A stretch of 64,000 nt of DNA, from NCBI GenBank assembly GCA_963716745.1, contig OY970320.1, forward strand, positions 512,001 through 576,000. Reading direction: 5' to 3'. How positions within the stretch are numbered: the stretch's first letter is position 1; each line of letters opens with the position of its first letter. This document shows, in pieces, positions 27,001 through 33,000 of this stretch. The stretch comes from an uncultured Gemmatimonadaceae bacterium (lineage in GTDB: Bacteria; Gemmatimonadota; Gemmatimonadetes; Gemmatimonadales; Gemmatimonadaceae). The position numbers are program-made.

Positions 27001-30000
27001 GATCACGCGCACTCCCGGCACGATCTCCTTCTCGCCTTCCACGAGATCGGCGCGCCCCGCTTCGACGACCGGCGCGAAGTTGTGCGGGAAATAACTCGCC
27101 GCCGTGCGCTCGTTCGTGTCCGCCGCGTACATGTACTCGCCGCGCTGCATCACGTAGCGCGCGTTCGGGAAGGTGAGCTTCACGTTCCCCGCCGCGTCGC
27201 GATACGTGTTCCCGCCCGCGTGATCGAAATGCAGATGACTGTCGATCACCAGCACGACGTCCTCGGCCGTGTGGCCCGTCTGCGCGAGCGCCGACTCGAG
27301 CATCGTGCGGCCGCCTTCGCCGGCGTTCTCGATGCCATAGATGTCGATGAACTTCTCGGATTCCTTGTTCCCCGCCCCGGTGTCCACGACGATCAGTCCC
27401 GCGTCGTGCTCGATGAGCATGCAGCGCATGCCGAGCTGGATGCGGTTGCGCGCGTCCGCGGGGATGCGCCGCTCCCAGAGCGGCTTGGGCACGACGCCGA
27501 ACATCGCGCCGCCGTCGAGCCGCTGGCCGCCAGCCTGCAGCAGGTGCACGGTGTACGCTCCCACCGTGATGCGCTCGACCAACGGTGTGGGCGCCGTCAT
27601 GCGGAGCCATCCTCGCGCACCGGGCCAGGCATCCCCGAGAGGCGCGACCGGTTGCCGCGCGCGCGCGCGCCCAGGAATTGCTGCAGATCGCTCCACGTAT
27701 TGCACTCGCGCTCGCGAACCACGCTGAGCATCCGCAACAGGATCTGCGCGGTGGCGTGTGCGTCGCCCATCGCGCGGTGGCGCGCCTCGTTCGCGACGCC
27801 GTAGTGATGCGAGACCGCGTCGAGCCGGCGGCTGGGCAGATAGGGGAGCACGCGTCGCGCGAGCTTCACCGTGCAGAGCTTGGGCCCGCTGAGACGGCGT
27901 CCAGTGGCGCGTTCCACTTCCGCGCGCACGAAGCGCCAGTCGAAATCGGCGTTGTGCGCGACGAAGACGTGGCCCTTCATCACGCGCAGGAGATCATCCA
28001 CGATGTCGGCGAAGCGCGGCGCATCCTTCACCATGTCCCACGAGATGTGCGTGAGCGAGGTGATGAAGGACGGGATCGGCCGTTCTGGATTCACGAGCGT
28101 GTCGAACGTTTCGGCGAGCTGGCCATCGCGCACGACGACGACGGCGATCTCGGTGATACGATCGCCTCCAGTTGCTTGCATGCCAGTGGTCTCCACGTCG
28201 ACCACTGCGTACGTGAGACTTGCCAGCTCCTTCTTCGCGGCGGACCGCGGCGGTCGGCTGTGGGCTGTCGCCGGCGGAACAGCAACGGCAACGACATCGG
28301 CGCACAGTTGCCAACGGCCCTCGGCGTCGCGCGCGAACTCCGGGCGGTCGGCGAACAGGGCCAGCGCCATCTGCTCGGCAACCACTCTCGGCGCGCCGGG
28401 CATCTGGCACACGTATTCAATGAGTGGCACCGCGTGCGCGGGCCCGCGCGCGAGCAGCTCGAGGGCGCGCTCGGTGAGCAGCGTCTCGGCGGGGCGCGCG
28501 GTCACGCCCATGGATCGGCGCGCTCCAGCGGCAGCGTCATGCAGCGCGGTCCGCCGCCGGCGCGCACGAGTTCCGCGCCCTCGAAGGTGATCACCGCGCG
28601 CTCACCGTCCTTCAGCCGCTCGTCGCCGGCCAGCAACGATGCGCCGCTCACGGCGCGGAAGCCCATCTTCTCCATCTCGGCGATCGTCGTCTCATTGCGC
28701 GAGTACGACAGCACCACGCCCGGCCGCACCGCGAAGAAATTGCAACCGCTTGCCCATTGCTCGCGCTCCTGCACGATGCGCCGCTCACCGCCGCAGAACA
28801 CCGGCTCCATGGGCAGGCTCACCGCCTGCAGCGCGGCAAAGATGTTGGGCATCTCCTTCATCTGCTGCTGCCCTTTGCGCCGGTGCAAGATCGAGAGGCG
28901 CTCGGCGCCCACGAACGCCGGCGCGAAGATCGAGCAGAGTTCGAGGTCGAGCTGCGTGAACACCATGTCCAGATGGATCGCCGTCGTCTCCGTGGGCATG
29001 ATGACGATGATCACGTCGGTGACGGTCGTCTCCGTGAAGAATTTCTCTGTGATCGTGTCGATCGCCGCCGGGACTCGTGCGCTCGCTGAATCCCAAGAGC
29101 ACGGTGTCGGAGCGCAGCGGATGCACGTCGCCGCCTTCGAGCGTGTAGTTGTGCCGGCGCTCGGCGGCGCCGTCGTACATGATGCCCTTGTTCGCGAGCG
29201 CGGGATGGTAGCGGAAGAGTGCTTTCATGAGCAGCTCTTCCGACCAGCGCGCGCCATAGCGCATCGACCCGATCATCACGTGCTCGCCGACCACCATCGC
29301 CGTGTCGCGCGTGAAGAAGAGATTCGGCAGCGGCGGCAGCATGTAGCCCACCTCGTTCAGCGAGCGCGCGAGCGGGCCCGGATCCTCGGCCTCGCCCTCG
29401 ATGAGCATCTGCACGAGTTCGGCGGGCGGACGCTGCGCGATCTTCGCGGCGAGCGGCGACGACCCGACGATCTCGGCCGTCTCACGCATGAGCAATTCGC
29501 GCGCTTCGGCGTTCGCGGCGACCTCACCCAGAAGGTCGCGCACGAAGTGCACCTTGGAAAAGCGTTCCAGGATCGCGACGAACCGCCGGTGCTCGCGCTG
29601 CGCGGCCTCGACGTCGATGATGTCATCGTAGAGGTAGTCGTCGCGGGTGGCGGGGGTGACGGCGAGGAGCTCGGGCCCGGGCGTGTGAACGAGGACCGAC
29701 CCCAGACGGCCGATCTCGGAGGTGATGTGGACGGGCATCACCGAAGATAATCCGGAAGCAGGGTGGGCGGAACGAGCGCCGGCGCGCTGGACGGGCGCCA
29801 GGAGCGAAGCCGCTAGCGATGCGGGCGCGGAGTTCTTAACTTGTGAACAATTTCACAAACCTCCCCTGCCTTGAAGCGCATCGCCGATTCCACCGTTCGC
29901 CGGCTCTCCCTGTACCTCCGCTTCCTCGAGGATTTCGAGGCGAAGGGACTCGCGACCATCTCGAGCAATGAGCTCGCCGCGCGCGGTGGCACCACCTCCG

Positions 30001-33000
30001 CCCAGGTCCGGAAGGACCTCTCCTTCTTCGGATCGTTCGGCAAGCGCGGGCTCGGCTACTCCGTGCCCGAACTCGAGCGCCGCCTGCGCCGCATCCTCGG
30101 CCTCGAGCGCGAATGGAGCGTCGTGATCGTCGGTGCCGGCAAGATCGGCGCGGCGCTCGCGCAGTACAGCGGATTCCGCGAGCGGGGCTTCAAGATCCTC
30201 GCCGTCTACGATGAGGATCCCGCCAAGATCGGAAGGAAGGTGGATGGCGTGACCGTGCGCCCGATGTCCGACCTCGCGCGCGACGCCGCCAAGCATCGCG
30301 CCGACATCGCGGTCCTCACCGTGCCCGGCACGGCCGCGCAACATGTGGTGGACATCGTGGTCGCCGCCGGCATTCGCGCCGTGATGAATTTCGCGCCCGT
30401 GCAGCTCAACGTGCCCGACAATGTGACGGTGAAGGATGTGAACATGGCGATGGAACTCGAAGGCCTGTCCTTCGCCCTCACGAACCAGGGTTAAGCGCGA
30501 CGAACAGCCGCGCGAAATCCGCCGGCGAGAGCGTTTCCGGCCGGGCTTCGGGCGCGATCGCGATCCCTGACAGCAATGCATCGGCGGCCGCCGCATCGAG
30601 CGACGCGACCGAGCGCAGCACCCGCGCCATCTGCTTCCGCCGCTGCGCGAACACCGCTTGCACCATGCGGCGGAATCGCTCCTCCTGCGGCGGCGGCACC
30701 GCCGTGTCGTCGCGTGGCGTGATGCGCACGACGGCACTCTCCACCTTCGGCGGCGGTTTGAACGCGCCCGCCGGCACGCCGAACAGCAGCTCCACGCGGG
30801 CCAACGTCTGGAGCGTCACCGAGAGCGCGCCGTACGTCTTGGAGCCCGGCGGTGCGGCCATCCGCTCCGCCACCTCACGCTGCACCAGGAACACCGCGCG
30901 CGTAGGCCGCGGCGCACGCAGCGCGTGGAAGATGATGGGCGTGGTGATGTAGTACGGCACGTTGCCGATCAGCACATAGCGCCCGCCGGCGAGCGCGCCG
31001 AGGTCCTGCGCGAGCACATCGCCTTCTATGATGCGCACGCGCGGCTCCGACTCGTACCGCTCGCGCAGCGCCGCGGCGAGCGCACGGTCGATCTCCACCG
31101 CGATCACGTGACCGGCGCGCGACACGAGCTGGGACGTGAGCGAACCGCGCCCGGGGCCGATCTCGATCACCGTGTCGTTCGCCGTGAGTTCCGCCGCGTC
31201 GGCGATCCGCGCGAGCAGTTTGGGATCGCTCAGGAAATGCTGGCCGAAGCGCTTGAGCACCGGCGGCGCGCCGGATCGCTTCGCGCCGGGCTTCTTCGCG
31301 CCGCTCCGCTTGGGCGGCACTCAGCTGCGCACGAGCACGACGGCGAGGTCGTCGCGCTGCAGCGCCTCGCCCGTGTGCTCGGCGAGCTCGTCGAACACGC
31401 GCTGCACGATCACACTCGGGCTCTCGGTGCGGTAGCGGCGCACGATGTCGAGCACCGGCTGCTCGCCGAGGCGCACGCCGAAGCGATTGCGCGCGTCGGG
31501 CACGCCGTCGGTGAACAGCAACAGGAGATCGGCGCCGGACACCCACGGGCGCTTGCTCGCCGTTGGCGTGCTCTCCACCATACCAAGCGGCGGGTCGAGG
31601 GCCGGCAGTCGCTCGGCGTTCCCGTTGCCCGACACGTGATACGCGTGTGGATGGCCGGTGTTCGCGTAGCGGAGCGATCCGAAATCGCGATCGATGATCC
31701 CATAGAACGTGGAGATGAACATCTCCGTCGTCGCGAGTTCCTCACGCAGCGTGTAGAGCAGCGCGTTGAGCATCTCGCCCGGATCGCCAGCCGCCTGCGC
31801 GTGGATGGCCGACGCGCTCATCGCGAGCGCCATGATGAGCGCGGCACGATAGCCGTGGCTCGACACGTCGCCGATCATGACGCCGGTACGGCCGTTGCCG
31901 AGCCGGAACAGGTTGTAGAAGTCGCCGCCCACGCTCTCGGCGGGCATCACGCGCGCGGCGGCCTGCGCCTCGGGCGCCACCACGTCCACGCTGGGCAGGA
32001 GCTTCATCTGGAGGTCGTGCGCCAGCGAGAGTTCCTGCACCAGCCGCTGCTGGCTGAGCGAAGAGCGCACGAGCCGCGTGTTCTGGATCGCGGTGGCGAT
32101 CTGCGTGGCGATGGCGGTGATGAGTTTCTGGTCGCCGGCGCTGAACGGCTGCTGCGTGGAGCGGTCGGAGAGGTTCACGACGCCCAGCGGCTCCGTGCCG
32201 CCGGCCGGCATCGTCCACATGATCGGCACGGAGAGCATGAGGCCGCGGCGGTAGTACGCCTCGGCTTCGCAATTCGTGCCGGGATCCTCCTCCACGATCA
32301 TCGCGCGCTGTTCGCGGAAGACGCGCGCGCTCACCGAGCATTCGTCGTGCAGCGCGATGGGCGGGATGTCGAGCACGCTCACGCCGAGCGCCGCGACCGT
32401 CTGCAGCGTGTCGGTGACGCGGTCGTGCACGAGGATCGAACCGCGTCGCGCGCCGACGGTCTCCGAGATCTCGCGCAGGATCGTGGCCGCCGCCTCTTCG
32501 AGTGACACCGTGCGTCCCAGGATCTCGGTGATCGTGTACAGCAGATTGATCTCTTCGTACCGCTCGGCGAGCTCGTTCGCGGCGTGCTCCACTTCGAGCG
32601 TCGACTGCAGTGACTGCGATACGACGGGCAAGAGGAACCGCGCGCAGCCTTCGAGCGACATGTCGGTGCGGCGGCTCGGTCCCACGGCGAGCCACGCGCG
32701 GCGCTGGCCCGGCACGGGGAGCAAGTGCACCGCCCCGCCCGGCGACTCCACGGTGATCGCGGTGGTGCCGGTGAGCGGCGGCGTCCATCCGATGGCGCCC
32801 ACGGCGGGCACCGCGGTGGCGATCCGTCGCGGCGGCCGCCCGTCGTCGGCGAGCCACACAGAGGCCGAGCAGGTGGTCGCGTCGCGGAAGCCGGTGAGTA
32901 CGGCCTCCAGGTCAGTCATGCCGGTGGAGCGTCATCCGCACGACATTGCCGTGATTCGAGAATCGCTCGAGGCGGTCCATTAACCGCGTCATGAGGAAGA

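Follow-up and report, generated by a model that had tools for sequence, protein, structure and literature searches.

Repression by Rex that is released by NADH is a mechanism shown in other bacteria, and the rex locus of an uncultured Gemmatimonadaceae bacterium, contained in a window of 64 kb (the whole stretch of DNA that was analysed), raises several questions: is the palindrome in front of this gene an operator for its own product? Which other genes carry the same box? And could such boxes be read by a different regulator, or by none? The features of the locus are collected in Table 1, with positions counted from the first nucleotide of the window.

Table 1. Features of the rex locus, with the basis on which each was assigned
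Feature	Coordinates	Strand	Basis
Predicted Rex operator through which rex would regulate itself; perfect palindrome, TTGTGAA-N4-TTCACAA	29841..29858		motif scan; 33.4 bits
Predicted -10 element (TAnnnT), overlapping operator positions 1 and 2	29837..29842	+	upstream DNA aligned across relatives
Intact rex gene for the redox-sensing transcriptional repressor (207 aa; start codon TTG)	29871..30494	+	PRK05472 models, 3IKT match
Arginine deiminase-like gene, divergent neighbour, two frames in the assembly (context only)	28502..29741	-	ORFs 28785-29741 and 28502-29014
rsmA (ksgA), convergent neighbour, synteny marker for rex loss	30478..31320	-	TIGR00755 over cut-off

The rex locus and the boxes of its genome

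The product of rex lies above the cut-off of the PRK05472 NCBIfam models (best E 1.4e-79), scoring 266.6 bits with NF003995 (cut-off 126) and exceeding the thresholds of five further Rex models, and its residues 3-205 align with a solved Rex structure, 3IKT (E 8e-55). This full-length match of the ORF to curated Rex models agrees with the preliminary description, in which the gene had been called intact. In an alignment of 12 sequences, matched to 3IKT, the stretches QVRKDLS (Q45-S51) and G-x-R-G-x-G-Y (R59-Y63), presumably the recognition helix and the wing of the N-terminal winged helix, are invariant. So are D114, taken here to be the conserved Asp of Rex proteins, and G88, G90 and G93 of GxGxxG, presumably the Rossmann motif, while Y99, which would be the NADH-stacking Tyr, is found in at least 90% of the sequences. 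When set beside the Thermus Rex structures (PDB 3IKT, 1XCB, 2DT5), the protein matches over its full length (E about 1e-54), keeps the winged-helix and dinucleotide-binding motifs, and reveals no structural difference in its sequence.

The palindrome ends 12 bp before the rex start, has the top score of the genome in a matrix scan and is the sole box in the window at up to two mismatches (0.04 expected). A box with at most one mismatch directly precedes rex in all 78 related loci that were assessable (80 were fetched, two of them without upstream DNA). A consensus promoter scanner called no promoter in the region upstream of rex. Regarding the divergent neighbour, the ORF at 28785-29741 matches arcA models below their cut-off.

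Genome-wide, six sites occur at up to one mismatch (541841, 1285210, 1415986, 1893071, 2603492 and 1993998, numbered along the contig), and at that threshold none was returned by the reversed, half-swapped and altered-spacer (N2, N3, N5, N6) controls. With a matrix built from 28 rex-upstream boxes, all from other genomes, the five sites previously proposed, at rex, the F0 operon, atpA, a cupredoxin gene and clpX, were found again as the top-scoring ones (26.1-33.4 bits). The next hits follow at 18.7 and 18.1 bits, nothing beyond the five exceeding 19 bits, which places the gap after five sites and not after six as had been described; for comparison, 12 bits were reached by 2 of 1500 random windows. 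Two kinds of hit were discarded as targets: the site at 1993998 (18.1 bits) lies inside an outer-membrane-protein-like ORF, and the 18.7-bit hit and similar ones (962705) are copies of a dispersed palindromic repeat. The identities of rex, atpB/E/H/A/G/D/C, clpX and CRP were assigned by HMM. The F0 box is followed first by a gene of the atpZ type (PF09527 in relatives; frameshifted in this assembly), and not by atpI, as had been stated. That the pattern extends over the order was confirmed, since all 39 sampled order genomes carry 2-7 boxes and the reversed control gave one site in two of the 39.

A proposed regulon for respiration and ATP synthesis

Judging from the placement and conservation of the boxes, it is highly probable that Rex represses a small bioenergetic regulon through promoter occlusion. 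At a low NADH/NAD+ ratio, a Rex dimer would occupy the 18-bp box and RNA polymerase would be blocked; NADH, on accumulating, would bind Rex and the box would be freed. The candidate operators overlap or follow promoters predicted from conservation at atpZ (32/32), atpA (26/37, strictly defined), rex and actA. Genome comparison supports a conserved core of this putative regulon in the order, formed by rex together with the F0 half (atpZ-I-B-E-(F)-H) and the F1 half (atpA-G-D-C) of the ATP synthase. The variable part would comprise actA (alternative complex III, ACIII), a plastocyanin-like lipoprotein and, in Gemmatimonadaceae only, clpX. With such a regulon, the cell might scale its capacity for respiration and ATP synthesis to the supply of electrons, draining the proton back-pressure at high NADH.

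The claim of one recurrent set of targets throughout the order proved too broad for the variable part. The clpX box is a family-level trait (5/9 genomes of the own family vs 0/19 in the order's other sampled family, leaving out G059 and G115, which offer no upstream DNA); it overlaps the clpP stop codon and is separated by a variable 17-30 nt from a putative -35 downstream of it, which is not an occluding position. The boxes of actA (14/30 genomes) and of the cupredoxin (17/26, four of the 30 genomes having no match) are patchy. In this genome actA has no site, as described before: its promoter-like elements persist and the box has decayed. The cupredoxin has matches among plastocyanin-type models and structures, and none of its four paralogues examined has a box. 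Within the order's other family, 12 of 16 genomes encode it on the strand of actA, 10-16 kb further downstream, with oppositely oriented genes in between; this lipoprotein probably carries electrons from alternative complex III.

Are the genes for terminal oxidases also included? Within 1.5 kb of cydA no box was found in the three genomes having this gene (out of five tested), a point missed by the preliminary description, and none of nine heme-copper oxidase loci has one; the nuoA of this genome lacks a box in the stretch scanned. It should be kept in mind that cydAB is a typical Rex target in Streptomyces and Bacillus, not a defining one. Because cytochrome bd is untargeted, scaling to electron supply is favoured over a low-oxygen oxidase switch.

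A different reading accepts the binding by Rex and assigns to it a minor fine-tuning, or a response to oxygen limitation such as that of Streptomyces or Bacillus instead of to electron surplus. This is possible, if somewhat unlikely: NADH increases under oxygen limitation and electron surplus alike, and the actA and cupredoxin boxes are frequently lost, but the atpA box is retained in 37/37 order genomes and the classic low-oxygen target, cydA, is boxless, as are the heme-copper oxidase loci. On the side of a minor role, a Desulfovibrio rex mutant showed increases below 2-fold, or none at all, for many of the predicted targets; conserved Rex sites may not respond when rex is mutated (PMC4045070). 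In S. avermitilis, oxygen limitation lowered atpI whether Rex was present or absent (PMC5355995).

That Rex is linked to ATP synthase is itself not new, and the surprise implied by the preliminary description was overstated: in S. avermitilis, an obligate aerobe, repression of ATP synthase and the aerobic chain is known, Rex binding and repressing atpIBEFHAGDC, nuo, cyd and rex according to the EMSA, ChIP, footprinting and qRT-PCR results presented (PMC5355995). Both systems share the regulator, the consensus, autoregulation, atp and respiratory genes as targets in an aerobe, and operators over the -35/-10 elements. They differ in that the S. avermitilis atp genes form one unit with one operator, whereas in the order studied here the operon is split and has a predicted operator per half. 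Furthermore, the targets there are cyd, nuo, ndh, hem and wblE, whereas here cydA is boxless and, unlike in the regulon as described for S. avermitilis, ACIII, cupredoxin and clpX are predicted variable targets; that regulon is experimental, while the one of Gemmatimonadales is predicted from genome comparison (PMC5355995). A Rex regulon made up of energy-conserving complexes is also found in the Gram-negative Desulfovibrio alaskensis, where the motif is likewise ambiguous between CRP and Rex (PMC4045070, PMC545781). An ACIII homologue, qrcABCD, is among the predicted Rex targets in Desulfovibrio (its HMMs match the act genes below cut-off), although D. alaskensis performs anaerobic sulfate respiration and the main text of its study names no ATP synthase target (PMC4045070).

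Rex and CRP as candidate binders

Since a TGTGA-N6-TCACA core is shared, a CRP/FNR-family regulator might bind these boxes, alone or with Rex, as the preliminary description had pointed out. The distribution of the boxes across the class bears on this question: they are present in 125/127 genomes with a canonical Rex vs 3/21 without Rex, figures to be read knowing that some of the Rex-less genomes are fragmented and that the genomes compared are related. Where there is only a divergent Rex, one of three genomes has a box. Among the three Rex-less carriers, one (G131) has a contig that ends where rex should come after rsmA; G025 and G072 have kept one box each; the two exceptions with Rex (G136, G149) lack a box at up to one mismatch. 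The same picture is given by the atpZ box in the outgroup, found in 24/26 Rex-bearing genomes vs 1/18 Rex-less ones (G122 and G138, of low completeness, and G131, with its assembly gap, being excluded from the latter, and G101, G001 and G093 dropped for having no usable stretch). The Rex-less exception (G117) retains a box of 15.9 bits; in another Rex-less genome (G109) the atpZ -35/-10 elements persist and the box has decayed. No atpZ box is present in G075 or in G076, and G136 retains its right arm only. Rex-less genomes form about eight separate groups on the AtpA tree, as judged by eye.

Because the boxes co-occur with rex, Rex is favoured over CRP and is the likely binder, and the sites are supported as predicted Rex operators; those of rex and atpZ are proposed to be ancestral to the class. 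A role for CRP must be considered very improbable and, on the evidence of genome comparison, has been largely rejected, as a CRP orthologue (E<=1e-30) occurs in 33/151 class genomes vs boxes in 129, leaving 96 box-bearing genomes without it. Two genomes without it, G063 and G071, encode further members of the CRP family whose helix is similar, whereas G009 (30 boxes) and G123 (5 boxes), two of the five tested, have no Crp HTH above the Pfam cut-off; also against CRP, a CRP-type helix is retained in the Rex-less G054, where no boxes occur. (Three of the five Rex-less genomes tested also lack a Crp HTH and are hence non-discriminating.) Cross-talk is nonetheless conceivable, given that the R-E-x-x-S-R helix is kept in the CRP of this genome and that three of its five sites contain a perfect CRP core. 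Of the two CRP proteins formerly attributed to this genome, one is a CRP with an HTH and the second, a cNMP-domain protein, ends without one. In Desulfovibrio, an identical signal was initially assigned to the CRP-like HcpR (PMC545781), but the sat and aps sites were later placed under Rex (PMC4045070).

The split ATP-synthase operon

The atp operon is split, into atpZIBE(F)H and atpAGDC, in this order only, with atpH (delta) remaining in the F0 half. All 37 split genomes assessed (G051 was not assessable and G142 not examined) have a box at atpA and no atpH upstream, whereas in the 57 unsplit outgroup genomes assessed (G082, G124 and G149 not being assessable, and G058, G074 and G102 having no match) atpH comes immediately before atpA and there is no box (maximum 3.7 bits). 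This tie between box and split (37/37 vs 0/57) had escaped the preliminary description. What appears to be new is that the second half's own binding site arose along with the operon split, as the genomes suggest; the split genomes form one clade (36/36; FastTree support 0.98 on the AtpA tree) and, since they are related, both changes may represent a single event.

At atpZ, a TAnnnT lies 16-18 nt past the first hexamer of the box in 32/32 cases, and the left arm coincides with the predicted -35. At atpA, TAnnnT occupies positions 7-12 of the box in 26/37 genomes, with TTG 16-18 nt upstream in 27/37, the predicted new -10 element thus being overlapped by the box. That the atp boxes are mostly a conserved sigma-70 promoter (-35 at atpZ, extended -10 at atpA), Rex-like but unregulated, is hardly credible: the left arm does deviate from the Rex consensus exactly where the promoter dictates it (TTGCGA begins 21/32 atpZ boxes, and position 7 at atpA is T or C, not the consensus A, in 37/37), but the right arm of atpZ, TTCACAA, is invariant in 32/32 despite sitting in the promoter spacer, and the atpZ box is lost in 17/18 Rex-less genomes with the operon still present. 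Under control by Rex, the split would have taken place in the ancestor of the order, atpA gaining a promoter whose predicted -10 lies inside the new Rex box; its 18-mer could then serve as promoter element and operator at once, and both halves of the enzyme would be under one signal.

A separate observation concerns an outgroup genus (g33), in which 10 of 15 sampled genomes carry 10-35 Rex-type boxes each. Of the boxes examined, about 40% are located in frame within unrelated genes and are under selection there; carB shows fixed arms around a variable spacer, the use of rare codons and one changed residue. The g33 boxes were discarded as a mobile repeat (the flanks are unrelated), and a role as terminus-avoiding, nucleoid-occlusion-like sites found no support (distances from dnaA show no departure from a uniform distribution, KS p 0.51 and 0.30). 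A bolder proposal, that the fission was rescued by a promoter-operator element balancing F0 and F1 on electron surplus and, jointly, that the Rex of g33 acts as roadblock or chromosome organiser, is speculative and, taken as a whole, unlikely. If true, the g33 Rex would be a genome-wide NADH-gated transcription roadblock or a chromosome-organising protein.

A literature search, confined for the most part to journals free of subscription and not reaching the principal comparative study of Rex, returned no Rex regulon described for Gemmatimonadota. Ravcheev et al. 2012 (J Bacteriol 194:1145) reportedly covered Rex regulons from several phyla, with respiratory and ATP-synthase genes among the targets of some. 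The regulon put forward here would provide this abundant, little-studied phylum with a predicted, well-controlled energy regulon. It also makes it possible to test how the parts of a multi-subunit machine stay co-regulated once their operon is split: a single operator would have been gained at the split and kept in 37/37 genomes, and operators would have been lost where rex was lost (a box persists in a few Rex-less genomes). If this is true, the order has preserved an instance of operon fission that can be dated.

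The rex gene and the boxes of its genome

The window holds a single match at up to two mismatches to the Rex-type operator TTGTGAA-N4-TTCACAA (the box; 0.04 matches expected), and it precedes rex (see table). This gene (g00568) is intact, as the preliminary description had it: besides having a complete reading frame, its product passes curated Rex models, aligns along its length with solved Rex structures and retains the DNA- and dinucleotide-binding motifs, whose residues we take to have the corresponding roles. Genome-wide (G000, 3.29 Mb, 67% G+C), six sites appear at one mismatch or fewer and none with reversed, swapped or wrong-spacer control patterns. 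Among the six are the five previously named (before rex, the F0 operon, atpA, a cupredoxin lipoprotein gene and clpX), and the sixth sits within an ORF. A matrix trained on 28 rex-upstream boxes, drawn from other genomes only in order to avoid circularity, places those five on top with 26.1-33.4 bits, as had been claimed, although the gap comes after five sites and not after six; the next hits have 18.7 bits, a copy of a dispersed repeat, and 18.1 bits. Random 370-nt windows reach at least 12 bits in 2 cases out of 1500. The rex box was found at all 78 assessable rex loci, and in G000 a divergent arginine deiminase-like gene could share this operator.

Boxes, genes and repeats discussed, with their positions (window or contig) or loci (L-numbers, in sampled genomes of the class)
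Feature	Genome	Position or locus	Description
rex box	G000, window	29841-29858	perfect
rex	G000, window	29871-30494	207 aa, intact; starts 12 bp after perfect box
Arginine deiminase-like gene	G000, window	28502-29741	divergent; start about 100 bp from rex box; two frames in assembly
Outer-membrane beta-barrel-like genes	G000, contig	1991597-1994493	tandem run of about five similar genes; sixth box inside one
Dispersed palindromic repeat copies	G000, contig	962705, 2804698, 2550459, 468018, 362867	weak matrix hits, not Rex sites
CRP site (candidate)	G000, contig	2684188	perfect CRP core, GC-rich spacer, no Rex flanks, about 70 nt ahead of a gene
rex boxes at start codon	G061, G009, G049	L308, L309, L311	overlap or apparently contain the rex start codon
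rex boxes at start codon	several order genomes	e.g. L002, L005	same overlap
Tandem double boxes	G008	L547:4237, L547:4270	upstream of unsplit atp operon
Tandem double boxes	G061	L304	upstream of unsplit atp operon
Two Calvin-cycle boxes	G055	L153:1501, L153:1840	flanked by phosphoribulokinase and RuBisCO large-subunit genes that point away from each other
Lineage-specific extra boxes	G047, G039; G027; G015	L141, L150; L013; L114	genes behind them: isocitrate lyase-family gene, class V aminotransferase, TetR-efflux gene
g33 boxes	G009	L061, L064, L069-L086, L129-L135
g33 boxes	G061	L062, L065, L288-L307
g33 carB		L490-L519

Co-occurrence with Rex and the CRP alternative

When a single set of 151 class genomes was searched for both the pattern and the Rex protein (canonical Rex, E<=1e-50), boxes were found in 125 of the 127 with canonical Rex, in 3 of the 21 without a Rex match (or with one at E 3e-4) and in 1 of the 3 with a divergent Rex only; every sampled genome of the order Gemmatimonadales (39/39) has 2-7. 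The tallies of boxes, Rex and CRP also count four genomes that are marked as unpublished (G142, G022, G018, G029), the first of which provided 1 of the 28 training sites, and no conclusion rests on them alone. One exception, G131, reflects an assembly gap: the contig stops 136 bp past rsmA, and in congeners rex follows that gene within about 2 kb; in the single-contig G072, rex is truly gone from between rsmA and arcA, and so is the box before the atpZ-type gene that opens the F0 half. As the autoregulatory box vanishes trivially with rex, the region upstream of the atp operon was checked from the gene side: boxes scoring 12 bits or more are present in 9/9 and 15/17 Rex-bearing outgroup genomes, in 1/18 Rex-less genomes and in 1/3 with divergent Rex. 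The Rex-less genomes, several of them one- or two-contig assemblies and others fragmented, fall into about eight groups of the AtpA tree, read by eye. The divergent paralogue of Rex shares about 35% identity with the Rex of the window; it is the only copy in G004, G041 (which retains an 18-bit atpZ box) and G100, and a second copy in G089 and G145.

Binding of the boxes by CRP rather than Rex is a real alternative. The recognition helix of the G000 CRP is intact, three of the five named sites contain perfect CRP cores, in Desulfovibrio the same signal was formerly attributed to a CRP-like factor (excerpts of PMC545781), and G063 and G071 encode CRP-family proteins with a similar helix other than the orthologue. 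However, that orthologue occurs in just 33 of the 151 genomes, so that 96 box-bearing genomes lack it; among five of these examined, which include G063 and G071, a Crp HTH over the cut-off is missing from G009 and G123, and the Rex-less G054 has a CRP-type helix but no box. The preliminary caveat was right about the shared core, but of its two CRP proteins the second is a cNMP-domain protein without an HTH. Some CRP cross-talk at the G000 boxes is conceivable; the Rex regulon itself we regard, from genome comparison, as real and well supported.

The split atp operon and the breadth of the regulon

In G000, the F0 half (atpZ-type gene, atpI-type gene, atpB, atpE and atpH; atpF lay outside the check) is 1.2 Mb from the F1 half (atpA, atpG, atpD, atpC); the atpZ-type gene, clpP and arcA are frameshifted in the assembly, probably through sequencing errors. 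Outside the order (63 of 112 outgroup genomes queried, 57 assessable), atpH directly precedes atpA and there is no box (best 3.7 bits) in 57/57. Within it, in all 37 genomes assessed (26 relatives by gene search; the 10 own-family relatives, all those sampled, by box position), atpH is not upstream of atpA and a box of 21.6-29.8 bits is. Since the split genomes form one clade (36/36, support 0.98), the split was probably a single event. The atpA boxes have T or C, not A, at position 7 (37/37), TAnnnT at positions 7-12 in 26/37 and TTG 16-18 nt upstream in 27/37; from these positions, the operator contains the predicted -10 of the new atpA promoter. The atpZ box supplies the predicted -35 with its first hexamer, and TAnnnT follows 16-18 nt on (32/32 boxes). 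Of the order genomes examined, 23/24 have this box; it came up from the box side in 14 and from the gene side in 9/10 (nine of these ten picked for having no atpZ-type box among the listed sites), and G075 lacks it.

The same targets had been said to recur across the order, which is true of the rex and atp boxes but only partly of the others, when 30 genomes of the order are searched from the gene side. The clpX box occurs in 5/9 genomes of the own family (Gemmatimonadaceae) and 0/19 of the other; that of actA, of alternative complex III, in 8/10 and 6/20, plus one at 11.6 bits; and that of the cupredoxin gene in 8/10 and 9/16 (paralogues, 0/4). In G000, actA is present with a decayed box, the clpX box lies over the clpP stop codon, 30 nt ahead of a putative -35, and the cupredoxin (166 aa) has a plastocyanin-type domain and a lipoprotein-like signal. 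In 12/16 other-family genomes, the cupredoxin gene is on the same strand as actA, 10-16 kb downstream, with genes of opposite orientation in between; the protein may be an electron carrier for the complex. No box was found within 1.5 kb of cydA (0/3; the gene is present in 3/5 genomes tested) or at nine heme-copper oxidase loci. Boxes at nuoA-type genes in scattered genomes (G071, G009, G013, G065) suggest that rex, atp and nuo form an older core. The Calvin cycle is possibly under Rex control in one genome, G055.

In the outgroup genus g33 (family f6), 15 genomes were sampled, of which 10 carry 10-35 boxes each; the other five have 0-3, three of them lacking rex. Unrelated flanks rule out a repeat, and there is no avoidance of the side opposite dnaA. 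By a simple codon score, 12/29 boxes examined in G009 and 11/26 in G061 are in frame inside functionally unrelated genes. That in carB, with fixed arms, a variable spacer and His in place of the relatives' common Tyr or Phe, is found in 8/10 high-box genomes (perfectly in 7, with two mismatches in 1), 0/5 low-box congeners and 0/15 other genomes. In-gene boxes (about 40%) are conserved between species in carB, GlnRS-GatB, an ABC ATPase, a flavin oxidoreductase and sarcosine oxidase.

Proposed regulation and comparison with other Rex regulons

The sequences themselves establish that the boxes exist, that they are conserved, that they occur together with rex and that they are linked to the split. 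By established knowledge (PMC5355995), Rex occupies operators of this kind until NADH releases it, in competition with NAD+; direct targets of its repression in the obligate aerobe S. avermitilis are atpIBEFHAGDC, nuo, cyd and rex itself. With the promoter positions predicted here, occlusion by Rex would repress rex, atpZ, atpA and the cupredoxin gene, repression at actA would act just downstream of the start, and the clpX box would perhaps serve as a roadblock. In Desulfovibrio, many conserved Rex sites respond less than 2-fold or not at all in a rex mutant (excerpts of PMC4045070), which cautions against over-reading boxes. The predicted regulon described there holds qrcABCD, a homologue of alternative complex III, here the target at actA; unlike in S. 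avermitilis, cydA has no box. That Rex is wired to respiration and ATP synthase and not to fermentation, as proposed previously, is supported, but it was already known from these two regulons. The literature searched, which left the main comparative Rex paper and all supplements outside its scope, described no Rex regulon in Gemmatimonadota. The new elements are the lineage itself, a second operator acquired along with the split, the lack of a cyd target, and the targeting of the cupredoxin gene and clpX. Because the low-oxygen oxidase is no target, the regulon would respond to electron surplus by raising respiratory and ATP-making capacity.
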